From an uncultured Acidobacteriota bacterium (GTDB lineage: Bacteria > Acidobacteriota > UBA890), in the NCBI GenBank assembly GCA_964430745.1, contig CAYSHI010000304.1, positions 5,180 through 69,179 of the forward strand: a DNA stretch of 64,000 nt, written 5' to 3'. Below are positions 9,239 through 36,737 of the stretch, in pieces. The position numbers and the translations under genes were made by a program. Numbering within the stretch: position 1 is the stretch's first letter; every line of letters starts with the position of its first letter. Below the pieces are notes generated by a model. It was not told the DNA's origin. It did not search any database and saw only the letters and a program-made list of their open reading frames with translations.

Positions 9239-9943
9239 ATGAGCGACAAGAAACACGCTTCGACGGATTCCAACGACTGCGGCAAGGAGACAAGGAGCAA
9301 CGTCTCGCGCCGCGGTTTCATCAAGGGGCTCAGCGCCGGGGGCATCGGCTCCGCGCTCGCTCCCACGGCGGTGTTGGGAGCCGGGACCATCGCCACCGCC
9401 GGAACGCTCACGGGAGGCTCGGCGCAAGAGGGCGAGGTTTCGGGCCCCGGGAAAGTGCCCATCCGACTGCAGGTCAACGGAGGGATGGTGTCCGTCGAGG
9501 TGGAGCCCCGCCAGACGCTGCTCGACGTGCTGCGGCAGGATCGCGGCGTAGACGGTGAGTACATCGACGTTACGGGGAACAAACGAGTCTGCGACCGCGC
9601 CAGTTGCGGCGCTTGTTCAATGCTCGTGGACGGCCGCCTGACCTACGGTTGCACGATGCTGGCAATCGAAGCTCAGGGGGTCGAGATCACGACCGTCGAA
9701 GGACTCGGCAGCCCCGATTCGATGCACGCGGTGCAGCAAGCGTTCGTAGAAATGGATGCCCTGATGTGCGGCTTCTGCACGCCGGGAATGGTGGTGGCAG
9801 TCGCGGCCTTGCTGGAGGACAACCCCGATCCGACACGAGAACAGATCCGCCGGGCACTCGACGGCAACCTGTGCCGCTGCGGCACCTATCCACGGATCTT
9901 CGAAGCCACCGAAACCGCCGCGGCACGGCTGAGGGGGGCCTGA
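9239..9943 (+). CDS. molybdenum hydroxylase small subunit, [2Fe-2S]-binding, Tat signal
   Basis: Twin-arginine motif SRRGFIKG; two Cys clusters CGACSMLV...C and CGFCTPG...CRCGTY typical of CoxS/PaoA/XdhA ferredoxin subunits. Confidence 0.85.
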   Translation: MSDKKHASTDSNDCGKETRSNVSRRGFIKGLSAGGIGSALAPTAVLGAGTIATAGTLTGGSAQEGEVSGPGKVPIRLQVNGGMVSVEVEPRQTLLDVLRQDRGVDGEYIDVTGNKRVCDRASCGACSMLVDGRLTYGCTMLAIEAQGVEITTVEGLGSPDSMHAVQQAFVEMDALMCGFCTPGMVVAVAALLEDNPDPTREQIRRALDGNLCRCGTYPRIFEATETAAARLRGA

Positions 9944-9945
9944 TC

Positions 9946-12288
9946 ATGGCGAAACGAACCGAAATCCCTGGTGTGCGACCCGGGCAGCCGCGCGACAGCG
10001 AATCCGTCCGCGAGCGCCTCGAGGTCGAGAACCCCCGTCTGCGAAAGGCTGCCGAAGCGGAACGAGCAGAAACCGTCGAGCGCTGGGCCCAGGATGCCGC
10101 ACAACCGCGCGAGTGGTCGTGGCCGAGCGAGCGTCGCCTCATCGGGCAGCGGATTCCGCGGCTCGATGGAGCGTGGAAGGCGACCGGCAGGGCGATCTAT
10201 TCGTACGACATCAACCGGCCCCGTATGTGCTACGGCAAGATGCTCCGTTCCCCGCACGGCCGGGCGAGCGTCGTCTCGATCGAGACCTCAGCGGCCGAGG
10301 CCGCGCCCGGCGTCGTCGCCGTCGAGACAATCGCCGAACCCGGAGCGACGCTTCGCTATCACGGCGACCCGATCGCGGCGGTGGCGGCAGAGACCGAAGA
10401 GCAGGCCCGCGATGCGTGCCGCATGATCGAGATCCGCTACGACCTCCTACCGCACGTGGTCACCGAGGAGGACGCGATGCTGCCCCGCGCGCCGCAGGTG
10501 CACGAGGACGGCAACATCCGGCTCGGCACCGCCCGAGAAGAGGGAGACATCGGCGCCGGCCTGGACGGCGCCGACGTGACCTTCGAAGGCGTGTTCCGCA
10601 CGCAGGTGCAGACCCACAGCTCACTCGAGACACACGGTGTCGTGGCCGAGTGGAACGGCGATCACCTGACGGTTTGGGCCTCGACTCAGGGGGTGCACGC
10701 CGTCAAGGACGGGTTGACCGGCTACTTCGAGATCCCCGCCACACAGGTGCATGTTCAGACCCCGGTGATGGGCGGCGGTTTCGGCTCGAAGCTCGGCTCC
10801 GGCATCGAGGATGCAATGGCTGCGGTGCTCGCTCGCCAGTCCGGCCGACCCGTGAAGATGCTGCTGGAACGGGACGAGGAGCACCTCGATACCGGTAACC
10901 GACCCTCCGCGGTCGCCCGCGTCCGCGCCGGCGTCTCCGCCGACGGGCGACTGACGGGATTCGAGGCCACCAGCTACGGCACCGGCGGGATCACCAGCGG
11001 CGCCAACTTCCCGTTGCCCTACATCTACTCGGTGCCGAACTCGCGCACCCAGGGATCCGCCATCTACATCAACGCGGGCAACCAGCGTGCCATGCGCGCC
11101 CCGGGGCACCCGCAGGGATCGTTCATCATGGAAGCGGTGATGGACGAGCTCGCCGCTCTCGTGAGCATGGATCCCGTGGAGTTCCGCAAGCTCAACGTGC
11201 CGACGGATTCGCTCTGGAGCGATCAGCTCGACCTCGGCGCCGAAGCGATCGGCTGGAGTGACAACTGGCATCCACCGGGGGACCCGACTCCGGGACCGAT
11301 CAAGAAGGGGCTGGGCTGCGCGATCTCGACCTGGGGCAGCGGCGGCGGTCGCACCCAGGCGTTCTGCCGCATCCATCCCGACGGCTCCGTGGAGATGAAC
11401 ACCGGCACCCAGGACATCGGCACGGGCACCCGCACCATCGTGGCGATCGTTACCGCCGAGATCCTCGGCTTGGAGGTCGAGGACATCACCGTCGGTATCG
11501 GCAACTCAGACTTCCCGTATTCCGGTTCCTCCGGCGGCTCTACGACGATCCCCTCGGTGTGCCCGGCCGTCCGCGTCACAGCGGGACTGGCGCTCGAAGC
11601 GCTGTTCGGTCGCATTGCCCCGGCGCTCGGCGCCAGTGCGGATCAGCTCGAGGCCCGCGTCGGCGGGATCGGCATCGTCGGCGACACGTCGACCTCCTGG
11701 AGCTGGAGGGAAGCCTGCTCGCGTCTCGGCACTGAACCGGTCTCCGTCGACGGCCAGTGGCAACCCGGCCTCTCGGCGCGCGGCGTGAACGGCGCACAGT
11801 TCGCCGCCGTTTCCGTCGATATCGAAACCGGCGTGGTTACCGTCGACAAGCTCGTTGCGCACCACGATTGCGGCATGGTCGTCGACGAGCTCACCGCGGA
11901 AAGCCAGGTCAACGGCGGCTTGATTATGGGACTGAGCTACGCGCTCTTCGAGGAGCGCATCATGGATCGACCGACCGGTCGCATGGTCAATCCCAACCTC
12001 GAGACCTACCACATCGCCGGCCCCTCGGACATGCCGGAGTTCGACGTCAACATGATGGATGTGCCCGACCGCGGCGTGCTCGGGCTCGGCGAACCCCCGA
12101 CGATCCCGACGGCCGCGGCCATCGCCAACGCGGTCGCGAACGCCATCGGGGTGCGCGTGCACTCGTTACCGATAACGCCCGAGAAGGTCGTAGCGGCGCT
12201 CGAAGAGGGCCCCGAGGCGACACTACAGGGAACTCGTTTCGATCTTCTCGACGCGGCCATCGCTGCAGAAGGGAGTGAAGGCCGATGA
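9946..12288 (+). CDS. molybdenum hydroxylase large subunit (molybdopterin-binding, aldehyde oxidase/xanthine dehydrogenase family)
   Basis: 780 aa; ATG at 9946 just after small-subunit stop; a/b hammerhead then Moco-binding domains (GGGFGSK, QGSAI..NAG..RAPG); the track ORF 9604.. is an N-terminal extension. Confidence 0.85.
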   Translation: MAKRTEIPGVRPGQPRDSESVRERLEVENPRLRKAAEAERAETVERWAQDAAQPREWSWPSERRLIGQRIPRLDGAWKATGRAIYSYDINRPRMCYGKMLRSPHGRASVVSIETSAAEAAPGVVAVETIAEPGATLRYHGDPIAAVAAETEEQARDACRMIEIRYDLLPHVVTEEDAMLPRAPQVHEDGNIRLGTAREEGDIGAGLDGADVTFEGVFRTQVQTHSSLETHGVVAEWNGDHLTVWASTQGVHAVKDGLTGYFEIPATQVHVQTPVMGGGFGSKLGSGIEDAMAAVLARQSGRPVKMLLERDEEHLDTGNRPSAVARVRAGVSADGRLTGFEATSYGTGGITSGANFPLPYIYSVPNSRTQGSAIYINAGNQRAMRAPGHPQGSFIMEAVMDELAALVSMDPVEFRKLNVPTDSLWSDQLDLGAEAIGWSDNWHPPGDPTPGPIKKGLGCAISTWGSGGGRTQAFCRIHPDGSVEMNTGTQDIGTGTRTIVAIVTAEILGLEVEDITVGIGNSDFPYSGSSGGSTTIPSVCPAVRVTAGLALEALFGRIAPALGASADQLEARVGGIGIVGDTSTSWSWREACSRLGTEPVSVDGQWQPGLSARGVNGAQFAAVSVDIETGVVTVDKLVAHHDCGMVVDELTAESQVNGGLIMGLSYALFEERIMDRPTGRMVNPNLETYHIAGPSDMPEFDVNMMDVPDRGVLGLGEPPTIPTAAAIANAVANAIGVRVHSLPITPEKVVAALEEGPEATLQGTRFDLLDAAIAAEGSEGR

Positions 12289-13295
12289 AAGCCTTCGAAT
12301 ACGTTGCTCCGACCAGCGTCGAAGGGGCGGTGAATCGTCTCGAAGAGCGGGCGGGTGAGTCGCAGCCGCTCGCCGGCGGCATGGACATCATCGGACTGAT
12401 GAAAGACTACGTGCTGCAGCCCGAGCGCATCGTCGCGCTGCGCGACGTCGGCGACTTGCGTGGCATCGAACCAACGGCGGACGGCGGACTACGCATCGGC
12501 GCCATGGTGACGGTGGCTGAGATCGCCGCCGACGAGCGCATCCGGGCGAACTGGCCGGCCCTCGCCGCAGCGGCCGGCGAAGTCGGCACGCCGCAGATCC
12601 GCAACCGCGGCACCATCGGCGGCAACCTCTGCCAGCGCCCGCGCTGCTGGTACTTTCGCTCCGAAGCCTTCACCTGCCTGCGCAAGGGCGGGGCCGCGTG
12701 CTTCGCCGTCGACGGCGACAATCGCTACCACGCCATCTTCGACACCGCCCCCTGCCCCATCGTGCATCCATCGAACTGCGCCATCGCGCTGCAGGCATAC
12801 GGGGCCGGCGTCACCGTTGCGGGGCCCGGCACCGCCGACGAGCCGGTCAGGCTCGAGAGCATGTCGATGGCCGACTTCTTCGTCCGCCCGGCGCGCAACA
12901 TCCGCCGCGAGAACGTGCTGACCGAAGATCAGATCGTCACCTCGATCGAGCTACCCGCGGCCGGCGGCGTGTCCGCTACGTACACCATCAAGCACAAGCA
13001 ATCGCACGACTGGCCGCAAGCGATGGCGACGGCGGTTCTCGAAATGGACGGCACCACCGTGACCTCCGCCAGCATCGTGATGGGCGCGGTGGCGCCGATT
13101 CCGTGGCGCTCGGACGCGGCGGAGCAGTCGATCACCGGCCAGACTGTCTCGGTGACCACCGCCGAGGCAGCCGCCGACGCGGCGGTCGCAGACGCCGAAC
13201 CACTCGACCACAACGCCTACAAGGTGCGGCTCGCTCGCACCGCGGTGAAGCGCGCCATCCTCGAGGCCGCCGGCATCGACTGGGCCACCGGGTAA
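12285..13295 (+). CDS. molybdenum hydroxylase FAD-binding medium subunit
   Basis: 336 aa; ATGA overlap with large subunit; FAD-binding PCMH motifs AGGMDIIGLMK and RNRGTIGGNLCQ (CoxM/PaoB/XdhB-like). Confidence 0.85.
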   Translation: MKAFEYVAPTSVEGAVNRLEERAGESQPLAGGMDIIGLMKDYVLQPERIVALRDVGDLRGIEPTADGGLRIGAMVTVAEIAADERIRANWPALAAAAGEVGTPQIRNRGTIGGNLCQRPRCWYFRSEAFTCLRKGGAACFAVDGDNRYHAIFDTAPCPIVHPSNCAIALQAYGAGVTVAGPGTADEPVRLESMSMADFFVRPARNIRRENVLTEDQIVTSIELPAAGGVSATYTIKHKQSHDWPQAMATAVLEMDGTTVTSASIVMGAVAPIPWRSDAAEQSITGQTVSVTTAEAAADAAVADAEPLDHNAYKVRLARTAVKRAILEAAGIDWATG

Positions 13296-18908: not shown

Positions 18909-19115
18909 GACACACCGCCGGAAGCCCCTGCGCCCGGCACCATGTCTCTACGGCCGTCACGCCTCGAAAGAGAGCGCCTACCCCGTTCCTGCTGGTTCCT
19001 TCCCCGCGCCGAGACCGGTGCATCTCCGCCCCCTCGAATAACGGTGCTGGAACCGAGATGGGCCAGCCGGTGACGAAAAAGCGCTGCCCCTTGGCCCCCG
19101 ACGCCCGTTCCCGCG

Positions 19116-19135
19116 GGTGCCGAAATATCGGCACC
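19116..19135. promoter_or_regulatory. 20-bp palindrome GGTGCCGAAATATCGGCACC, candidate enhancer (UAS) for a sigma54 activator
   Basis: Perfect 8-bp inverted arms with 4-nt spacer, about 120-135 bp upstream of the -24/-12 promoter. This geometry is typical of NtrC-type EBP sites. Confidence 0.4.
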
Positions 19136-19213
19136 TGCCCGCCAAGGTCTTCTCGGGCCGCCGATTTCACGTCATCTCGGCTTCGGCAACCTGCCCGTCG
19201 AATTCGCACAAAC

Positions 19214-19229
19214 CCCTATGAGCATAGGG
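19214..19229. promoter_or_regulatory. palindrome CCCTATGagCATAGGG between UAS and promoter
   Basis: Perfect 7-bp inverted repeat 23 bp upstream of the -24 element; possible second regulator or IHF-type site. Confidence 0.3.
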
Positions 19230-19251
19230 TTTCCTTCTATCGCGGACAGCC

Positions 19252-19267
19252 TGGCATGAGGCTTGCT
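19252..19267 (+). promoter_or_regulatory. sigma54 (-24/-12) promoter TGGCATG-N4-TTGCT
   Basis: Matches TGGCACG-N4-TTGCW at all but one position; GG and GC dinucleotides correctly spaced; 45 bp upstream of the NHL-repeat gene start. Confidence 0.6.
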
Positions 19268-19311
19268 ATTAAGAGGCGCAGAAGTTCACTGCAGCCAACA
19301 AGGAGCTTCAC

Positions 19312-20376
19312 ATGCCAAGGATCATCCAGCCGGTGGTATCGCCAAGGGGGCGTATCATCGTACTTACCGGCGCGACCCTGTGGCTCATCGCCGCGATGGT
19401 GCTTTCAGCGACACCCGACGGGGTGCGCGCAAGCACCGGCGATGTAACACGCACGTTCGCGACCAACATTGTTCACTCCCTGGACGAGCTCGACGGGGCT
19501 CCCGGGATCCTCTACTACCCACGCGTCGCCACGGACGCGCTCGGGCGCGCATACGTCGCCGACGAAGGCCAGCATCACGTCGTTCGCCTGGCTGCCGACC
19601 TCCGCACAGCGGAAACCGTCTTCGGCAGGGAAGGCGCGGGCCCAGGCGAGCTTCGGATGCCCCACGACGTCGCCACCGACAGCAAAGGAAACGTCTTCGT
19701 CGCCGACCTGGAACTGAACCGCATCATCAAGTTCGCCGACGACGGCACCTTCGTGCGCCAGATTGCGGCACCGGGCGCGGCGTCCCTGCTGGTGGACTCG
19801 CAGGATCGTCTCATCGCCTACCCGGCGCCCGGAACGGCCCTCCTGCAGCGCTACGACAACGATCTCGACGAGATCGATACGCTGCTGGAGAAACCCGATC
19901 CCAAGAGATATCGGTCGTCGCTGGGCGTGCTCCTTGCCATGGGACGAGACGATCATCTCTACGTGCTCGATCAGGCAGGCCCGACGCTTTCGGTTTACGA
20001 CCGCGAGATGAACCGGGTCGACGAGTGGAATGTCGAGCCACCGCAGCTCCGCGAATCTATCGACGCCCATCTGGAGACCATGCGGAAGCGGATGCCGGAA
20101 GGCTACACCGCGCACTGGAACGGCATTCAGTCGATGGCCATCGACCCGAGCGGCCAGCTTTTGGCTTTCTTCTACCTGGTGAAGGAATCCCCCGACGTCA
20201 AATACACCCAGGTGGCCTGGTACCAGGTCGACGGTACCCGCCTGTGGGTTGAAAAACGTAGCGGAAAGGTCCTGAGCGGCGCCCTGCTGCCCGGCGGCCA
20301 TATGGTCGAAGGAAACGCGGAAGAGGTTTTCGTCCGCAAGCTTCAAACCACCCCCACGACCTCGGGCAACAACTGA
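19312..20376 (+). CDS. NHL repeat-containing beta-propeller protein, N-terminal signal/anchor
   Basis: 354 aa; N-terminal hydrophobic segment IIVLTGATLWLIAAMVL; repeated blades with ...G.VFVAD..NRI.KF... NHL-like motifs. Confidence 0.7.
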   Translation: MPRIIQPVVSPRGRIIVLTGATLWLIAAMVLSATPDGVRASTGDVTRTFATNIVHSLDELDGAPGILYYPRVATDALGRAYVADEGQHHVVRLAADLRTAETVFGREGAGPGELRMPHDVATDSKGNVFVADLELNRIIKFADDGTFVRQIAAPGAASLLVDSQDRLIAYPAPGTALLQRYDNDLDEIDTLLEKPDPKRYRSSLGVLLAMGRDDHLYVLDQAGPTLSVYDREMNRVDEWNVEPPQLRESIDAHLETMRKRMPEGYTAHWNGIQSMAIDPSGQLLAFFYLVKESPDVKYTQVAWYQVDGTRLWVEKRSGKVLSGALLPGGHMVEGNAEEVFVRKLQTTPTTSGNN

Positions 20377-20416
20377 GATGCCTCCGACGGCCCAGCGGAA
20401 CACAAGGAGACAAACG

Positions 20417-20668
20417 ATGAGAAAGCAAGGAAAGCGCAACTGGTTCGATATCGCAACGACGTTGTGGGCGATCACGCTGGTGATCGTCGCCGTCACCTGG
20501 GTCGCCACGCCGGTCTTCGCCGGCGGCGGTCCCAACTGCATCGGCGTCTGCGTGGAAGAGGGTCTCTGCGAGGATGAGGGCGGCTGCAAGACCGCCGAGT
20601 ACGAAGGTGGGCAGTGCGGCGGCGACTGCCGCGATGGCGGCGAGTGGACGTGCCCGATGGGTGTCTAG
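20417..20668 (+). CDS. small membrane-anchored/secreted cysteine-rich peptide (83 aa, 8 Cys)
   Basis: RBS aaggag 8 bp upstream; N-terminal TM/signal WAITLVIVAVTWVATPVFAGGG then Gly/Glu/Cys-rich core CIGVCVEEGLCEDEGGCKTAEYEGGQCGGDCRDGGEWTC. Confidence 0.5.
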   Translation: MRKQGKRNWFDIATTLWAITLVIVAVTWVATPVFAGGGPNCIGVCVEEGLCEDEGGCKTAEYEGGQCGGDCRDGGEWTCPMGV

Positions 20669-20770
20669 GCAAGCCTCGCGCCATCACGATTGGCTGCGGT
20701 GAATGGCGCGCGCCGGCTGGCGGGTCTTCCCCCCTTGCACCTGCCAACCGGCGCCGCGCCAACCGCTAAA

Positions 20771-20814
20771 CGCTTCGCGGCGAGCCGACGGGCTTGCCGC
20801 GAAGCGCTTTTTTG
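20771..20814 (+). terminator. intrinsic terminator (possibly bidirectional)
   Basis: 11-bp GC stem cgcttcgcggc / gccgcgaagcg, 14-nt loop, followed by TTTTTT; lies between the convergent Cys-peptide gene and the sigma54 EBP gene. Confidence 0.6.
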
Positions 20815-20881
20815 TCCAAAAAATCGGCCCGCCGCGGCGCGCGGGAGGTGAGGCGCGCCGAGGGGGCCGCTTTCTTCGTTG

Positions 20882-22501
20882 CTATTGCACCCCGTAACGA
20901 CGCAGCTTCGACTGCAGCGTCGTGCGCGGGATGTCGAGCATCCGTGCCGCTTGGCTGATGTTGCCCTTGGCCATCGACAACACCTTACGCAGGTGGGCGG
21001 CGGTGGCACCGTCGAGGCTGAGGCTCTCGCGGCCGGCGCCGTTCCCGGCCCGCGCGAACGAACTCTTCCCGACCGTGCCCGCCGGCACAATCGCCAGGTC
21101 TGCAGCCGGGTAGACATCGGTGTTCCAGCCGCTCGAGCCGTCCATCGTCCGGCCGCTGCCGTTGTTGCGCCCGTTGCTCACCGAGCGCCCGTTGCTGTTC
21201 GATCTACCACTCCTGCCTGAACGCGGGTTGCCGTCGGACGGCGTGCGTCCGTTGGGGTTCCCGCTCCCGGAGGAGTCGTTTCCGGCCGCCCGAAACGCTC
21301 CCTGAAGACCCTCGGTGGCATCGGCCTCAGGTGCGCGCGTGGGCGAAGGAAGCAGCGTCAGCCGGGCGCCCGGCGCATGGCCACGAGGCGGATCCGACAG
21401 CCCCGGAAACGGAATGGACTCGATGCGTCCGGAGCAGGCCGTCGCGGCGGCGCGCAGCACGAGGTTGCGCAACTCGCGCACGTTGCCCGGAAACGGGTAC
21501 CCCAACAAGCTTCCGAGCGCTTCAGACACGAGCTCCAGCGATTGTCCCCAACGTTCCTCGAGAACACGGACGAAGTGACGTGCCAACACAGGGATGTCGT
21601 CTAGCCTGTGGCGCAACGGTGGTACATCGATCGTCAGCGACGTCAGGCGGTAGTAGAGATCGCTGCGGAACCGGCCTGCGGCTACGTCCGCCGCGAGATC
21701 GCGGTTGGTGGCGGCGATGATGCGTACGTCGATCCGCTGCATGCGTCCCTCGTCGCCGAGTTGCTGCATCTCGCCGTATTCGAGGACACGCAACAAGGCC
21801 GCCTGCAGACCCGGTCCCATCTCGCCGATCTCGTCGAGGAACAGTGTCGCCCCATCGGCAATCTCGAAGCGTCCGCGCTGGTCGCGGACGGCGCCCGTAA
21901 AGGCGCCACGACGATGCCCGAACAGCTCGCTGGCAATGAGCTCGTCCGGCACCGCGGCGCAGTTGATGGTGCTGAGCGGCAGGTCGTTGCGAGAGCTGAC
22001 GCAGTGCACCATCTGCGCGATGAGCTCCTTGCCGACGCCGGTTTCTCCCTGGATCAGCACGGGCTCGTCCAACGCTGCATAGCGGCGTGCCAGCATCTCG
22101 ACGTGTCGAATACCCGGGCTGTGCCCGACGATGGTCTGCTGCAGACCTTCATCGCCGAGGCACCGGCGCGCTTCCCAGGTTGCCAGCATCTCGGCAACCC
22201 GCGCAGCATGCTCGTGCGCCGATCCGTTGACGGGCTCGGCCGCCTCCAGACCGACAGTGCCGCATACGCGTCCGGCAAGATCGACCGGAACCTCTACGCC
22301 ATACGGGTACCGGGACGCCGCGGGATCTCCGGCCGCCTCGACGGTGTGGGCCTGGAGCTTCGCCCAGGCTCGTCGGGCGCCGGGGGCGGTGAGACAATCG
22401 CTCGCCGCCGCATGAAGTGCCGCCTCGCGATCCGCATCCTGCGGAGGACGGCATAGGAACTCCAACAGTCCAGACTCGGCCAGGTTACCGGCCTGCATCA
22501 T
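20882..22501 (-). CDS. sigma54-dependent transcriptional activator (EBP) with N-terminal sensory domain and long low-complexity linker
   Basis: AAA+ sigma54 activator motifs GETGVGKE, GAFTGA, ESELFGH..GAFTGA; C-terminal Fis-type HTH; a linker of roughly 110 aa rich in S/G/N/R with NGRS repeats. Confidence 0.9.
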   Translation of the reverse strand: MMQAGNLAESGLLEFLCRPPQDADREAALHAAASDCLTAPGARRAWAKLQAHTVEAAGDPAASRYPYGVEVPVDLAGRVCGTVGLEAAEPVNGSAHEHAARVAEMLATWEARRCLGDEGLQQTIVGHSPGIRHVEMLARRYAALDEPVLIQGETGVGKELIAQMVHCVSSRNDLPLSTINCAAVPDELIASELFGHRRGAFTGAVRDQRGRFEIADGATLFLDEIGEMGPGLQAALLRVLEYGEMQQLGDEGRMQRIDVRIIAATNRDLAADVAAGRFRSDLYYRLTSLTIDVPPLRHRLDDIPVLARHFVRVLEERWGQSLELVSEALGSLLGYPFPGNVRELRNLVLRAAATACSGRIESIPFPGLSDPPRGHAPGARLTLLPSPTRAPEADATEGLQGAFRAAGNDSSGSGNPNGRTPSDGNPRSGRSGRSNSNGRSVSNGRNNGSGRTMDGSSGWNTDVYPAADLAIVPAGTVGKSSFARAGNGAGRESLSLDGATAAHLRKVLSMAKGNISQAARMLDIPRTTLQSKLRRYGVQ

Positions 22502-22784
22502 GACTCACCTCCCCTTGCTTGTGCCTCCCCCGTCGTTAGGGTCAGATGCACCCCTACATTACATAACGGTCGGGGTGCCTCCCCTTACGACCGCATCTGC
22601 ATCTGACCGGCATTTTGGCTGCGGTAGGCTGCGGTGATCAGTGCTGATGCGTTCAAGACAGTGCACCAAAAAATGACACATTGCCAGCCCCCCACGGAGG
22701 TTCAAGGGCTACAATCGGCGCGACATTCATCACCATGCAAAACAGTGCCCGCGAACTCGCTATCGTTTGCGATCGGAGAGAGCG

Positions 22785-23590: not shown

Positions 23591-24610
23591 CTAACGGAGA
23601 TTCTGGCGGAAGAAGCGGACTACCAGGAAGGCGTCGATGAGATAGAAGGGGGGGCGGCCCAGGGTGTAGTGGCCGCACGGGAGGATGGCCCGGCGGAAAC
23701 CGACCTCGGCGTCGCGCAGGGAATCGGCGAGGGCCTGCGCGTGCTGCGGAAGGAAGATCGGGTCGTAGGCTCCGGAGACCAGAAGCAGGGCGGGCTGCCG
23801 GTCGTACAGGCGGTCGGTGAAATGAGCCGGAGAGATCGGTGCCCAGCAGCGTCGCAGGGTCTCCAGGTCGATGTGCCCGTCGAGGCTCTCGCGGACGTGC
23901 CGCGTCGCCAGACCCTCCCACACGACATCGGCGAAGTACCCGGCGACATGATTGAATGCGGCGGCGTCGATCCCTTCCTCGTGTGTGAGGGCGAGGAAGC
24001 CGACACAGGATCCGAGGCTCGTGCCCATCAGGCCGATGCGCCGGTATCCCTGCGCCCGCAGCCAGGCCACCGCGAGGCGAACTTCAACCACCGCCCGCCG
24101 TACCTCCTGTAATGTCAATCCCAGCACCGGGCTGACCATGGCGTCCGCTCGCACCATACGCGGGGGGCGGCGATCCTCGTGGTAGGGCAGCGTCATTCGC
24201 AAGGCATCGAAACCGAATCGGCTGAGAATTCGGCACGCGCCCACCATCGAGTCTTCGTCGGCATTCCACTGCGGGATCACGACAATGGCGCGGCCGTCCG
24301 CGTCCGCGGCCTCGAACATGCGCGCCGACGCCCGCCGCACTTCGGGATCCTCGCTCGGAAGCGGAGAGTCGAAGGTGAGCCGGTGGCCGTCGAAGACCGC
24401 GCCCGACATCGCGCCGATCCGGTAAAAGTCGGTACTCGCGCGGCGCATCTCGGCCGCCATATCTGCCAGCTCCGAGCCGTCCGACACGCGCTGCGGATCG
24501 ACGAGGCCCGCGAGATGATCGACGCCCAGTCCGAATTCCTGGGATCGCCGATCGTCCGCGTGATCGTCGAAGATCGAACGCTCCCATCGGTGAAAGAAAC
24601 GACGCAGCAT
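23591..24610 (-). CDS. alpha/beta-fold hydrolase (esterase/lipase-like)
   Basis: 339 aa; nucleophile elbow GTSLGS (GxSxG); remainder consistent with an a/b hydrolase fold. Confidence 0.75.
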   Translation of the reverse strand: MLRRFFHRWERSIFDDHADDRRSQEFGLGVDHLAGLVDPQRVSDGSELADMAAEMRRASTDFYRIGAMSGAVFDGHRLTFDSPLPSEDPEVRRASARMFEAADADGRAIVVIPQWNADEDSMVGACRILSRFGFDALRMTLPYHEDRRPPRMVRADAMVSPVLGLTLQEVRRAVVEVRLAVAWLRAQGYRRIGLMGTSLGSCVGFLALTHEEGIDAAAFNHVAGYFADVVWEGLATRHVRESLDGHIDLETLRRCWAPISPAHFTDRLYDRQPALLLVSGAYDPIFLPQHAQALADSLRDAEVGFRRAILPCGHYTLGRPPFYLIDAFLVVRFFRQNLR

Positions 24611-33393: not shown

Positions 33394-33521
33394 TCGAGAA
33401 AAGTGACGGACGAGCGGCCGCCGGACCGGCCGCCGGCCTGGGAGTCGAGCGAGGGGTCCCCTGGTTTTTCCCCTTCCGTCCAACGGTCATCCCATTTGGC
33501 GAGCCGGCCCGACCGCCGCTC
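33394..33521. repeat. perfect 16-bp inverted repeat gtgacggacgagcggc / gccgctcgtccgtcac with 96-bp spacer, between convergent genes
   Basis: Exact reverse complements; the spacer is itself GC-rich and partially self-complementary. Confidence 0.4.
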
Positions 33522-33757
33522 GTCCGTCACGCCCATCATAGTTAGCAAGCGCGATGCCAAACCGGGGGCGGCGCTGCTGCTCGCGCTCTCGCAAGGAGCC
33601 GAAACCTCCGTAGACGTGGCCTCGGGCCCGCTACGGGTCCTCGAAAAACGAAACTTCGGGCACCGAGAGACCTCGCCACGTGTCCGAAGAGCGGCAAGTG
33701 TCCGCATGTCGACGCCCGCCGGCGGTCACATCGTGGGATGGGAATGACGCTATGTCG

Positions 33758-35296
33758 TCATTCTGGTGCGTCGTGCTCGCCGATGCCGTATCGACGCAAC
33801 TTGTGATAGAGCGACGTACGCGGGATCCCGAGCAACTCGGCCGCGCGCGACTTGTTGCCTCCGCTGACCGCCAGAGCGCGGCGGATGTGCGCCTCGACCA
33901 GTCGATCCAGCGGAACGACCGACGAGTCATCCGGAGCCGTCACGGAGCCCTCCGATGGGTCCGGATCCGGGCGCGACTCGGCCGGGCCGGGCGGCGAAGC
34001 GAGCGGTCGGCCGGAGAGTGACGGCGCCAGATCGGTCACCTGCACGGCGTCGCTTTCGGCGAGCACCGCCGCCCGGTGGACGGCGTTGCGCAGCTCGCGC
34101 ACGTTCCCCGGCCAGTCGTGTTCCTGGAGCTTTCGCAGTGCCGGCGCCGTGAATCTTTCCGGACCGCGGCCGTTCGCAAGCCGAAACGCGCGCAGGAAAT
34201 GCTCCGCCAGCAGGGGAACATCTTCCACGCGCGCCCGCAACGGCGGGACGCGCACGTCGAAAACGTTGAGACGAAACAGGAGGTCCTCGCGGAAGCTCCC
34301 CGCGGCAACGAGGTCGGGCAGGTCCTGATTGCTGGCCGCGATGATGCGAACGTCGATGCGCCGGGTGCCCCGTTCCTCTCCGACCTTCTGAACCTCGCCC
34401 TGCTCGAGGACCCGCAACAGCATCACCTGGAGCCTTGGGCTCATCGACTCGACCTCGTCGAGAAACAGGGTGCCGCCGTCGGCCAGCTCGAGCTTTCCGG
34501 CCTTGTCGCGATGCGCCCCCGTGAAGGCGCCGCGGACGTGCCCGAAGAGCTCCGACGCAAGCAACTCTTCCGCGAAGGCGCCGCAATTGACGATGAGTAA
34601 CTCCTGGTCGCGCCGGCTGGAAAAATAGTGGATGGCGTGGGCCAACAGCTCCTTGCCGACGCCGCTCTCACCCGTCAGCAGCACAGGCTCGCGCGTCGGC
34701 GCCACACGTTTGACAAGGGTCTCGATGTTGCGGATGGCGTCGGAGATGCCGACGATCTCCACGTTGTAGCCGCGTCTACGCGAGAACTCCGAAAGCCACT
34801 GCCGGGAGACGAACAAGGACACCGCCTCGGCAAGGTCCTCGAGACGGCCCTGATGCTCGGCATCGTAATGACCGAGCTGCAGCGACTCGACGGAAAGCAC
34901 GCCGATGGGCTTTCCCTGCAGGCGAATCGGCACCGCGAGATTTGCTCGTGCCCCTTTGAAGGCACGGAAATAGTAGGGATCCTTCGCCACATCGTTGGCC
35001 AGGTACGGCTCGTTGTTGCGATAGACCCAGGTGATGATCCCGGGTGATTCCTTGTCCTGGGCGAGCAGATTGGGCAGCTCGTCCAGCAACTCGCCTTCCT
35101 CGTGGGCCGAGACCACGCGTACTTCGTCGTTTTCCTGTTCGAGGACGTAAATGCTCCCGAAGTCGCTGCCGGTCAGCTTGCGCGCGACGTCCACGAAATC
35201 GGCCATGATCCCCTTGACCGTCTGATCCCGCCGCGGCCAGCCGTCGACAACGATCTTGTGGAGGATCTCCTGAGAAAGCGCGGTCGCTCGGGTCAT
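33758..35296 (-). CDS. sigma54-dependent transcriptional activator with N-terminal GAF domain
   Basis: Start at internal ATG 35296 (the 50 aa upstream in track ORF are an extension); GAF-like N-terminus; GESGVGKE, GAFTGA, Fis-type HTH C-terminus. Confidence 0.9.
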   Translation of the reverse strand: MTRATALSQEILHKIVVDGWPRRDQTVKGIMADFVDVARKLTGSDFGSIYVLEQENDEVRVVSAHEEGELLDELPNLLAQDKESPGIITWVYRNNEPYLANDVAKDPYYFRAFKGARANLAVPIRLQGKPIGVLSVESLQLGHYDAEHQGRLEDLAEAVSLFVSRQWLSEFSRRRGYNVEIVGISDAIRNIETLVKRVAPTREPVLLTGESGVGKELLAHAIHYFSSRRDQELLIVNCGAFAEELLASELFGHVRGAFTGAHRDKAGKLELADGGTLFLDEVESMSPRLQVMLLRVLEQGEVQKVGEERGTRRIDVRIIAASNQDLPDLVAAGSFREDLLFRLNVFDVRVPPLRARVEDVPLLAEHFLRAFRLANGRGPERFTAPALRKLQEHDWPGNVRELRNAVHRAAVLAESDAVQVTDLAPSLSGRPLASPPGPAESRPDPDPSEGSVTAPDDSSVVPLDRLVEAHIRRALAVSGGNKSRAAELLGIPRTSLYHKLRRYGIGEHDAPE

Positions 35297-35300
35297 GGGC

Positions 35301-36737
35301 TCATTGTAGTGGGGCGGTCGCGTCTCGAGGGACGCTCGGTGGGCCGTCAACGCGAAACTGATACGACGATGGATACCAGTGCAACGCCCACGACTCGAGG
35401 ATATTGCTTCCGAGTACGGCGATCGGAGCGACACCCCCATCGACACCCCACCCGGCCAGCGAGGCCGGACGCCAGGAGACGTCGGAGCGCCATGCTCCCA
35501 GCATCAGATTCGCCGGCGCCGAATTGCTCCCCGGAAGCACCTCGAAGGAGTCGGAGTCCAACCGTGAGGTCTCGCCCGGATCGATCCCCGCGGCGACGAC
35601 AGCGTCGGACACGCGGGGAAACAAGAGCACCTGTGTCCCCACGCCTTCGCGCGCCACCCGCGCCCTCAACCAGGCGAGCGTGGAGCCGGTCAACGGGGCG
35701 GAAAGCGAGTCGACGTCGGCGGCACGAGGGGGCGGGGCGATGATCAGTTGGGCGCGCAGCGGGAGCAGCGTCCAGCGCGCACCGACCAGCAGATCAGCCC
35801 CGATCACGCCGTCAACCCCGGGCGGCGCGTCCGCGACGGCGACCACGACGCTGCGCACGGAGAGGTCACCGAAATCCACTGAGGGAATCGCCACCTGGCG
35901 TGACGAGAGAATCGAGGGCCAGCGAGATGTCGCAGCTCTGCCGCCCCCGGGCGCTCCATCAACCGGCAACCCAACCGCGCGGACAAGCTCCTCGGAGATC
36001 AGGCTCTGACGAAACGTGAGGTCGAGCTTCAACCGGGCTGCGCTACCTGAGACGACCGCTTCCACCGCCCAGCCTCCGCCTTCCAGCGGATGCATCGGGA
36101 GGATCTCGGGCCCACCCGTCCACTGCTGCGGCGGGCCTTCGATTCGAGCGGCTGCCGCTCCCATAGCGTCCGCGGCCCGGCCCCGCGAAGTCCCACGCTC
36201 CGCGGCTCCCCAGGCGAGCATCTCGCGTCCGGCCGCGGCGGCGTCTCCAGCCACCCAGGCCGCGCTGGCGAGCACCGCGTGCGCGACTCCGGCTCCCTCC
36301 TCGGCGGCCAATCCCGCTCGCGCCATTTCGACGGCGGTACTCCAATCGGCCGCGCTCGCCCGCGCCACCGCCACGCCGACGTGTCCCTCGACGAGGCCGG
36401 CCTCCAGAGCACGGCGGAAGTGAGTCTCCGCACTGCGCACGGCGCCGTTGCGCCATAGCGCCCAGCCGTATACCAGGTCTGCCTGCGGTCCGCTGTATTG
36501 TCGCTGCAGCAGTTCGGCGCGCGTCAGCGCCTGCCGGACCCGATCCTGTTCGAGCAACGTACGGACTTCGCTGATCGACGGAGCCAACGTTCCGGCGTCG
36601 GCAGCGAACTCGAACCTACACCCCCCCAGCATCGCGCAAAGGGTGCCAACGATGATCAGTGTCCGGCCCGGGCTTCGGGCCCGGCCATTTTCACTTTCCC
36701 CGCGCGATGGTATATTCACGCCGATAGGGATCTCCAT
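35301..36737 (-). CDS. hypothetical lipoprotein with TPR-like N-terminal region
   Basis: Lipobox-like LIIVGTLCAMLGGC; Ala-rich helical repeats; C-terminal beta-rich domain. The true start may lie downstream of the annotated ATG. Confidence 0.45.
   Translation of the reverse strand: MEIPIGVNIPSRGESENGRARSPGRTLIIVGTLCAMLGGCRFEFAADAGTLAPSISEVRTLLEQDRVRQALTRAELLQRQYSGPQADLVYGWALWRNGAVRSAETHFRRALEAGLVEGHVGVAVARASAADWSTAVEMARAGLAAEEGAGVAHAVLASAAWVAGDAAAAGREMLAWGAAERGTSRGRAADAMGAAAARIEGPPQQWTGGPEILPMHPLEGGGWAVEAVVSGSAARLKLDLTFRQSLISEELVRAVGLPVDGAPGGGRAATSRWPSILSSRQVAIPSVDFGDLSVRSVVVAVADAPPGVDGVIGADLLVGARWTLLPLRAQLIIAPPPRAADVDSLSAPLTGSTLAWLRARVAREGVGTQVLLFPRVSDAVVAAGIDPGETSRLDSDSFEVLPGSNSAPANLMLGAWRSDVSWRPASLAGWGVDGGVAPIAVLGSNILESWALHWYPSSYQFRVDGPPSVPRDATAPLQ

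Follow-up and report, generated by a model that had tools for sequence, protein, structure and literature searches.

A conserved, predicted sigma54 operon for an exported NHL propeller and a seven-cysteine mini-protein, with its putative enhancer in a terminator-like hairpin

The 64,000-nucleotide (nt) stretch of contig CAYSHI010000304.1 analysed here (the window), from an uncultured Acidobacteriota bacterium, contains a gene for an NHL-repeat protein and, directly behind it, a gene for a small protein with several cysteines. A sigma54-type promoter and an inverted repeat precede the pair, and a gene for a sigma54 enhancer-binding protein (EBP) faces it. These parts probably form a conserved, dedicated regulatory unit in which the EBP controls a bicistronic operon for an exported NHL beta-propeller and a 7-Cys mini-protein. 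The inverted repeat is predicted to be the cognate enhancer of the convergent EBP and to represent a widespread enhancer type, which in this lineage appears to have been built into the terminator of the operon upstream. These assignments come from comparisons of sequences and predicted structures.

The NHL protein has ~35 full-length orthologs at 42-100% identity, and a metagenome scan added two further ones at 34-36%. One ortholog, 48% identical, is labelled Acidobacteriota, and the lineage in which the operon is conserved is probably one of uncultured Acidobacteriota. A profile scan of genome contigs with the NHL alignment matched generic NHL proteins and no true orthologs. All contigs with an ortholog of either protein carry the small Cys open reading frame (ORF) immediately behind the NHL gene, and the convergent EBP gene is present in each of the ten loci that extend far enough to include it, also in those with 34-36% NHL identity. 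The first-pass annotation of the window had proposed a sigma54/EBP cassette and a cross-genome check of whether the NHL gene, the Cys peptide and the EBP co-occur; promoter, palindrome core, NHL gene, mini-protein gene and convergent activator are indeed conserved together in every orthologous locus of sufficient length. The collinear gene order is SbcD, SbcC, a small ORF, a HARE-HTH protein, an extracytoplasmic function (ECF) sigma factor, a tetratricopeptide-repeat (TPR) anti-sigma factor, the NHL protein and the mini-protein, followed by the convergent EBP, a 203-residue protein resembling outer-membrane proteins (OMP-like), a hydrolase and pyruvate kinase.

The promoter element lies at 19252-19267 on the plus strand, 45 nt upstream of the NHL/mini-protein operon, and reads TGGCATG-AGGC-TTGCT (TGGCATGAGGCTTGCT). 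It has 0 mismatches to TGGCAY-N5-TTGCW, and its GG and GC doublets are exactly 10 nt apart within the TGGCAC-N5-TTGCW pattern. TGGCAY-N5-TTGCT was kept in 16/16 orthologous loci at the same position, 39-51 nt 5' of the start codon, and the earlier call of a near-consensus sigma54 promoter at this site therefore stands. Exact matches number 2 in the window, where shuffled sequences lead one to expect 0.04; with up to one mismatch allowed there are 4, compared with 1.6 expected. Transcription is predicted to start near 19278.

Upstream of the promoter is the palindrome at 19113-19138 on the plus strand, with the core GTGCCGA-AATA-TCGGCAC, a candidate upstream activating sequence (UAS). In an alignment of 15 orthologous upstream regions, most of the intergenic DNA is unconserved and a few islands are sharply conserved, namely the palindrome core gGTGCCGAnATnTCGGCAc, half-sites downstream of it, the promoter TGGCAY-N5-TTGCT, an inverted repeat at the predicted start site (+1) and the ribosome-binding site. 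The palindrome core is invariant in 13-15 orthologous loci, with NHL identity down to 34-36%, and the DNA flanking it is not conserved. Its distance to the promoter is 123-136 nt in 14/15 loci, mostly 131-136, and the 144 nt of the remaining locus contain an N-gap. An inverted repeat that is conserved in both sequence and position within 80-200 bp upstream of a promoter is thus present, as is typical of a UAS. Because an ordinary terminator alone would account for neither the invariant core nor the fixed spacing to a sigma54 promoter, the palindrome is unlikely to be only that.

The palindrome had earlier been described as perfect over 20 bp and as lying at enhancer distance, about -125. In the 20-mer GGTGCCGAAATATCGGCACC at 19116-19135, the AATA centre is not self-complementary, so that only 9/10 positions pair; the arms reach 11 nt (19113-19123 and 19128-19138), with one G.T pair. 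The upstream placement is right and the spacing is conserved, but the position was imprecise, since the centre is ~128 nt upstream of the -24 element and at ~-150 from the predicted start site. Only one copy with up to two mismatches exists in the window. Each 9-17 kb orthologous locus likewise has only that copy, save for one 2-mismatch chance match elsewhere in locus L090, which is consistent with a small, dedicated regulon.

Further conserved blocks of the 15-region alignment follow the palindrome on the plus strand: CGCCGA (19159-19164), ~30 nt downstream of the core, CGTCA (19170-19174), and TCGGCA (19183-19188), 18 nt beyond CGCCGA. In our own reading of the alignment the spacing GCCGA-N18-TCGGCA recurs in most loci, and these half-sites possibly constitute a second, weaker EBP site. 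The second palindrome that the first-pass annotation had placed at -40, CCCTATGagCATAGGG, is present at 19214-19229 on the plus strand, but it is specific to the window. Most orthologs contain no equivalent inverted repeat, only the left-hand GTAAaCCCC being loosely kept, and the repeat is probably incidental.

The half-site pair is not confined to NHL loci. When metagenomes were scanned for TGCCGA-N4-TCGGCA followed 101-131 nt later by TGGCAY-N5-TTGC, at least 120 contigs matched (loci L092-L211). Among the matches listed, only ten are NHL loci, and most of the others precede unrelated genes, such as those for a sulfatase, STAS-domain proteins and small ORFs; many of these non-NHL loci have an adjoining EBP gene. 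A recognition helix of the form (K/P)RTTLQS(K/R) occurs in 24/26 complete EBPs encoded at the matches listed, 2 of the 24 being orthologs of the window EBP. The helix of the window EBP, PRTTLQSKLRRYG, is of the RTTLQS type. The window's other EBP (33758-35446, minus strand) has a PRTSLYHK helix, and no such palindrome lies near its gene. TGCCGA-N4-TCGGCA may therefore be the general half-site of one EBP subgroup that shares the RTTLQS helix. A literature search on the TGCCGA half-site, on NHL proteins with sigma54 and on Acidobacteria found nothing relevant.

The EBP itself (20882-22501, minus strand) comprises 539 residues with Sigma54_activat (PF00158, E = 1.5e-61), AAA_lid_14 and HTH_8 (PF02954, E = 7.6e-09) domains. 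In an alignment of 8 orthologs, with total lengths of 487-549 residues, the GAFTGA loop is invariant, and the 115-residue N-domain, the AAA+ domain and the helix-turn-helix (HTH) are near-invariant. The convergent activator and its low-complexity linker had been noted earlier, although the linker was given as 110 residues rich in S/G/N/R; it measures ~130 residues and is rich in Asn, Gly, Ser and Arg. As it varies in both length and sequence among orthologs, it is probably a fast-evolving spacer found across the lineage rather than a peculiarity of the window. We found no recognizable N-terminal regulatory domain (receiver, GAF, PAS or V4R): residues 1-121 have no significant Pfam match (best E = 0.11) and no sequence match in PDB, and the whole protein matches no NCBIfam equivalog at its cut-off. 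The N-domain does contain two invariant cysteines and one that is nearly invariant.

The EBP gene and the gene for the 203-residue OMP-like protein diverge from an intergenic region, 22502-22784, that is itself unusually conserved across six loci. An inverted repeat with arms of 11 nt lies at 22540-22550 and 22598-22608, the EBP leader carries repeats of a GGGGAGGCA box, and a consensus structure for the region is only weakly supported.

The second gene of the operon (20417-20668, plus strand) encodes 83 residues and has an AAGGAG-type ribosome-binding site 7 nt upstream, in agreement with the earlier description of a tightly linked small gene. Its product consists of a basic N-terminus, a hydrophobic helix, a signal-peptidase-type site (VFA|G) and an acidic core of 48 residues, with ~10 acidic residues and a net charge of ~-8 predicted for the mature form. 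A membrane-anchored or secreted Cys-rich peptide had been proposed, and the predicted hydrophobic helix and cleavage site agree with this; the core has 7 rather than 8 cysteines, spaced C-x3-C-x3-5-C-x5-6-C-x9-11-C-x3-C-x6-8-C. A search with the single sequence found three close homologues, and one with a profile of 13 syntenic copies retrieved 41 clusters in which the Cys positions are conserved, which speaks against the possibility, raised beforehand, that the ORF is spurious. Throughout the family, a conserved hydrophobic segment (WFDIxTxxWAIALVxxA) precedes a PAFA-type signal-peptidase site and a Gly/acidic core, in which only the cysteines and a few glycines are conserved; the hydrophobic segment is better kept than the core. 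In the loci with 34-36% NHL identity the core has 8 cysteines. In a 99% identical copy from another sample (P0001, contig L001) the third conserved Cys, which is invariant elsewhere, is replaced by Trp (a single TGC-to-TGG change), as a result of natural variation or of an error in sequencing.

The mini-protein is matched by no Pfam or NCBIfam family model. An exhaustive search of 1.84 billion representative proteins with a hidden Markov model (HMM) gave 37 matches, of which ~30 are small proteins of the same design. The remaining 7 are large proteins of repeated PAN domains (6 were checked by Pfam) in which repeated stretches of 35 residues resemble the Cys core; members of the mini-protein family do not match the Pfam PAN models. 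The HMM searches that the first-pass annotation had recommended thus yielded a rare homologous family, but no assignment to a known Pfam or NCBIfam family or to one of the ribosomally synthesised and post-translationally modified peptides (RiPPs). On this evidence, the mini-proteins are a rare family of predicted exported proteins not previously described.

An AlphaFold2 model of the mini-protein (predicted local distance difference test score, pLDDT, 75.6 overall and ~85 in the core) contains a helix at residues 7-30, a second at 41-48 that carries the first CxxxC, and three strands. Foldseek found no significant neighbour of this model in PDB (best E = 0.8). The model suggests a small, disulfide-stabilised alpha/beta domain that would be exported by the Sec pathway and reside in the periplasm. 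Its single CxxxC helix packed on a three-stranded sheet recalls cysteine-stabilised alpha/beta (CS-alpha/beta) defensin-like peptides, but the second CxxxC of the mini-protein lies in a strand, where those peptides have CxC. The resemblance to PAN/apple domains consists of the profile matches of the Cys core to repeated stretches in PAN-repeat proteins; however, PAN models span ~70-80 residues, whereas the core here has ~45 residues with 7 cysteines and is strongly anionic. A small subunit of the quinoprotein-dehydrogenase type (QHNDH gamma or MADH light chain) was considered and rejected, as radical-SAM and cytochrome genes are absent.

The cysteines of the two proteins raise the question of a metal or redox response of the envelope, in which the mini-protein would bind or buffer thiophilic metals or buffer redox changes and the Cys residues of the EBP N-domain would sense the same stress, much as in ZraR/ZraP or OrpR. 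The composition of the mini-protein is suitable: its 7 conserved cysteines, being odd in number, cannot all pair, so that one thiol or more stays free, and ~10 of the 48 core residues are acidic. The conserved N-domain cysteines of the EBP fit as well, an ECF sigma/anti-sigma pair is encoded next door, and a precedent exists in OrpR, an EBP that senses through Cys/Fe-S and has a regulon of one locus (PMC8359166). However, three cysteines are too few for a standard 4Fe-4S site in the N-domain, and the mini-protein is unlike a metallothionein, having CxxxC-type spacing, predicted export and an alpha/beta fold, with no CxC/CC clusters and no His. Its compact predicted fold is consistent with structural disulfides, and genes for metal transport or resistance are absent from the conserved neighbourhood. 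We therefore regard this explanation as unlikely, even if it fares best among the alternatives. A role of the mini-protein as a metal binder or as a ligand of the propeller is conceivable but speculative.

The ECF sigma/anti-sigma operon also bears on the palindrome, which in orthologs lies 35-60 nt 3' of the anti-sigma stop codon. As RNA, the window sequence at 19113-19138 folds into a GC-rich stem-loop with an 11-bp stem and an energy of -23.8 kcal/mol (z = -3.4). In orthologs the invariant 8-bp arms are flanked by further complementary bases that differ from locus to locus and bring the stem to 11-20 bp. In a stem alignment of 13 loci, 87% of cells are paired and covariation scores 0.286, compared with 0.157 in shuffles (0/500 reach the observed value) and 0.06-0.21 in slid registers. 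GC and AU pairs are exchanged at four stem positions with nearly no unpaired cells; at pairs 10/35 and 12/33, where G-C alternates with A-U, every cell is paired. Single-sided changes in the well-paired stem comprise 5 G.U and 0 A.C on the plus strand, and the stem is therefore apparently read as RNA from that strand. A T-rich tail (4-8 T in 12 nt) follows the hairpin in 12/14 orthologs. From these comparisons, we propose that in orthologs the palindrome doubles as a Rho-independent terminator of the upstream ECF sigma/anti-sigma operon. Its plus-strand transcript would then form a GC-rich hairpin of 11-20 bp that, together with a U-tract, ends transcription of the ECF pair and insulates the sigma54 operon from ECF-driven transcription.

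In the GC-rich stem of 11-20 bp, the 4-nt loop, the T-rich tail of most orthologs, the covariation and the G.U pairs, the element resembles known Rho-independent terminators. Two things set it apart from them: the sequence of the inner 8 bp of both arms does not vary even among distant relatives and coincides with a half-site of the EBP type, and the window copy has lost the U-tail. Between the anti-sigma stop codon and the hairpin, the window has ~200 nt of extra intergenic DNA (18909-19112) relative to the 35-60 nt of orthologs, and this DNA holds a partial direct repeat of the left flank of the hairpin (18982-18999 and 19104-19121, 83% identical).

These properties might be taken to mean that the palindrome is the ECF sigma/anti-sigma terminator and nothing else, with the EBP binding elsewhere, for example to the half-sites at 19159-19188, or regulating a distant promoter. 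The extended, covarying stem, wobble pairs that are all G.U, the U-tail and the short distance to the anti-sigma stop codon in orthologs would be expected under such an explanation, and other conserved half-sites are indeed available downstream. A terminator, however, provides no reason for a core of 16-18 nt to be invariant across loci whose proteins are ~35-50% identical, or for a fixed distance of ~134 nt to the sigma54 promoter. Moreover, many unrelated loci have this half-site pair ahead of a sigma54 promoter, with adjoining EBPs that share the recognition helix, and among the matches listed the non-NHL loci have neither the extended stem nor the T-tail. Termination as the sole function is thus doubtful, and we prefer the reading in which one palindrome serves as enhancer and, in orthologs, also as terminator.

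The first gene of the operon (19312-20376, plus strand; AAGGAG ribosome-binding site at 19300-19305) encodes a protein of 354 residues. One NHL repeat exceeds the Pfam threshold (E = 2.2e-10, 40.5 bits with a cut-off of 20), and the SGL model scores 17.8 bits, under its cut-off of 26.3. An AlphaFold2 model from the ortholog alignment (pLDDT 85.5) places a hydrophobic helix at residues 20-32 ahead of a propeller with six blades, and the earlier description of an exported NHL beta-propeller behind the promoter is upheld by the ORF, the Pfam match and this N-terminal helix. The product is accordingly modelled as a six-bladed propeller that may be either exported or membrane-tethered. In Foldseek searches of PDB the NHL domains of TRIM71, Brat and TRIM2 rank first (E down to 1e-15). 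PAL and virginiamycin B lyase rank lower, PAL having the highest query-normalised TM-score (0.63).

The likeness to known NHL propellers (TRIM71/Brat, PAL, virginiamycin B lyase and the PknD sensor) is one of fold, with Foldseek E values of 1e-15 to 1e-10, target-normalised TM-scores of 0.53-0.76 (0.7-0.76 for isolated NHL domains) and one repeat that passes the Pfam NHL model. The window protein differs in being a stand-alone protein that is N-terminally anchored or exported, with 13-20% identity to its matches, and in having no invariant His and hence no Zn-His3 site of the PAL type. In the family alignment of 35 sequences, none of the 34 invariant columns is His, and the orthologs shown contain no Cys; the catalytic metal residues of PAL, SGL lactonases and virginiamycin B lyase, such as the His3 Zn site, are accordingly missing. 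The propeller has no Cys and no invariant His, and a role in binding or sensing is more likely for it than one as a metalloenzyme.

In the same alignment, invariant positions are most densely clustered in the N-terminal tail with the hydrophobic helix (M1, P7, S10, G13, R14, L18, G20, T22, L25, L31, S32, A33 and P35). In both operon products, the N-terminal tail and hydrophobic segment (encoded at 19312-19420 for the NHL protein and 20417-20520 for the mini-protein) are more conserved than the mature domains, which is unusual for signal peptides. This hints at a retained anchor, an interaction of the segments or a specialised targeting signal. A twin-arginine (Tat) signal was rejected for the pair, as the RR motif is absent.

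Another explanation centres on signalling. The tethered propeller, with its highly conserved cytoplasmic tail of 19 residues, and the mini-protein would be a sensor and ligand pair that feeds back on the EBP or the anti-sigma factor, in the manner in which PspA/B/C act on PspF. The invariant cluster in the NHL tail and helix, a mini-protein segment more conserved than the core, and an EBP that has no receiver domain are compatible with it, and NHL propellers serve as extracytoplasmic sensors elsewhere, as in PknD. Both N-termini, however, also fit cleavable signal peptides, in which case the conserved segments would be removed, and synteny with the anti-sigma factor is inseparable from the overall conservation of gene order. 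We give this proposal a small chance.

Least probable is a bacteriocin or RiPP-like role for the mini-protein with the propeller as its processing or immunity partner. A highly conserved N-terminal region, a core variable apart from Cys and Gly, and PAL, a peptide-processing NHL propeller, among the structural matches would suit it. However, the leader is basic-hydrophobic and Sec-type with an AxA site, the strongly negative charge is unlike that of cationic antimicrobial peptides, a Zn site of the PAL type is missing from the propeller, and the C-termini of the peptides show no conservation. Neither RiPP families nor those of Pfam and NCBIfam gave a match, and genes for a maturase, a radical-SAM enzyme, a protease or an ABC exporter are absent from the conserved neighbourhood. 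The earlier suggestion of a bacteriocin-like peptide is disfavoured for the same reasons. PAL-type amidation of the mini-protein was also rejected, given that no C-terminal Gly is conserved and the propeller has no His3 site.

Several points weigh against the interpretation of the locus as a dedicated sigma54/EBP operon with an enhancer inside a terminator. All relatives share the gene order of the whole 15-20 kb region between SbcCD and pyruvate kinase, and gene adjacency alone is therefore weak evidence of a functional link; it is regulatory DNA, rather than adjacency, that appears to tie the parts together. The start site of the promoter is a prediction from sequence. Binding of the EBP to the palindrome is suggested indirectly, by the RTTLQS helix that it shares with EBPs beside the half-site at other loci, and the background of RTTLQS among EBPs is represented by just 2 control EBPs. 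Symmetric changes in the palindrome arms could also reflect a co-evolving dimeric binding protein, and only the ratio of 5:0 between G.U and A.C favours RNA. The window hairpin has no U-tail, its tail CCGCCAAGGTCT containing 2 T in 12 nt, and it lies ~208 nt past the anti-sigma stop codon; for both reasons termination by the hairpin in the window itself is doubtful. Finally, the role of the products is deduced from fold, topology and composition.

If the operon is nevertheless controlled as we propose, EBP dimers would bind the TGCCGA-N4-TCGGCA palindrome, and perhaps the downstream half-sites too. The EBP would form a hexamer, reach the closed E-sigma54 complex at 19252-19267 by DNA looping and open the promoter by ATP hydrolysis through its GAFTGA loop, with the Cys-containing N-domain gating its activity. 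Both products would be exported via the Sec pathway, and the propeller and the mini-protein would act together as an inducible envelope module. Such a binding or sensing module is favoured over an enzyme or a bacteriocin.

Psp and ZraP are sigma54-dependent envelope responses, and the putative envelope module of the window resembles them loosely, by analogy. The regulatory architecture resembles that of classical bacterial EBP regulons (PspF-pspA, ZraR-zraP and OrpR-orp). An inverted-repeat enhancer lies ~100-150 bp from a -24/-12 promoter; an AAA+ activator with GAFTGA and a C-terminal Fis-type HTH is encoded beside its target; the target encodes predicted envelope proteins; and the regulon is apparently very small, with one palindrome in the 64-kb window. 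The differences are that the EBP N-domain matches no known sensor family, that an NHL propeller and a mini-protein of an undescribed family take the place of PspA or ZraP homologues as targets, and that the enhancer is embedded in the terminator hairpin of an upstream operon.

Other elements accompany the operon. At the predicted +1 of the operon, an inverted repeat (GGCGCAG...CTGCAGCC) spans 19275-19296 on the plus strand; in orthologs it has the form GGCTGCA-N8-10-TGCAGCC. Its left arm starts 8-12 nt past the -12 C and thus straddles the predicted start site, and its right arm, TCACTGCAGCC, is among the best-conserved blocks in the alignment of orthologous upstream regions. The structure of this 5' untranslated region (5' UTR) was judged from folds of individual sequences, which predict a hairpin in most orthologs; RNAalifold on a MAFFT alignment of the 5' UTRs gave no structure, the left arms being misaligned. 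The arms covary (GGCTGCA/TGCAGCC, GCTGCG/CGCAGC and GCTGT/ACAGC), and the repeat may be a 5' UTR stem-loop or an operator for another regulator. Downstream of the operon, a plus-strand terminator at 20771-20813 consists of a strong 16-bp stem (20771-20806, 12 GC pairs) followed by CTTTTTTG with TTTTTT, confirming the terminator noted earlier behind the gene pair. Back to back with it, a terminator-like hairpin for the EBP gene occupies 20818-20845 on the minus strand (CCCGCGCGCCGCGGCGGG at 20845-20828, then CCGATTTTTT).

The first-pass annotation counted one sigma54 promoter in the window; a second exact match, TGGCATCGCGCTTGCT, follows closely behind a GAF-AAA+-HTH EBP gene (33758-35446, minus strand) and occupies 33544-33559 on the same strand. 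No ORF follows this promoter. Instead, the region contains an extended hairpin of ~130 nt that ends in CACUUUUCUC, with a minimum free energy of -90.9 kcal/mol (z = -6.1) and no Rfam match; an Rfam search of the window at the gathering threshold also gave no match. The region 33395-33559 on the minus strand is a candidate sigma54-dependent small RNA. Elsewhere in the window, genes for a molybdoenzyme of the xanthine-dehydrogenase/CO-dehydrogenase family, with [2Fe-2S], molybdenum-cofactor-binding (MoCo) and FAD subunits, lie between SbcC and HARE-HTH (9239-13295, plus strand). They are absent at that position in orthologous loci, which points to a lineage-specific insertion. An ORF at 23591-24610 on the minus strand, two genes from the EBP and kept in most orthologous loci, matches the NCBIfam model 'RcgR family putative quorum lactone hydrolase' with 196 bits (cut-off 182).

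The regulation proposed here is textbook sigma54 control by a bacterial EBP and leaves the understanding of sigma54 unchanged. What is new is the mini-protein family and its strict pairing with a particular NHL propeller; neither this pairing nor the half-site was described in the literature we searched. The assignment of the half-site to RTTLQS-type EBPs could aid regulon prediction in metagenomes, and the palindrome offers an example case of one sequence acting as terminator and enhancer. More speculatively, and with long odds in our estimation, the locus could be an undescribed sigma54 envelope response of two new families, in which the conserved cytoplasmic tail of an anchored NHL propeller feeds back on a Cys-sensing EBP, the acidic, periplasmic 7-Cys mini-protein contributes a free thiol, and the enhancer sits inside an ECF terminator. 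If this were true, EBP occupancy would be coupled to ECF termination or read-through, giving cross-talk between two alternative-sigma systems. The interest of the locus is mainly for those who work on sigma54 regulation or on small secreted proteins, for whom it would provide a cleanly delimited and comparatively supported sigma54 regulon in a poorly studied, uncultured lineage.

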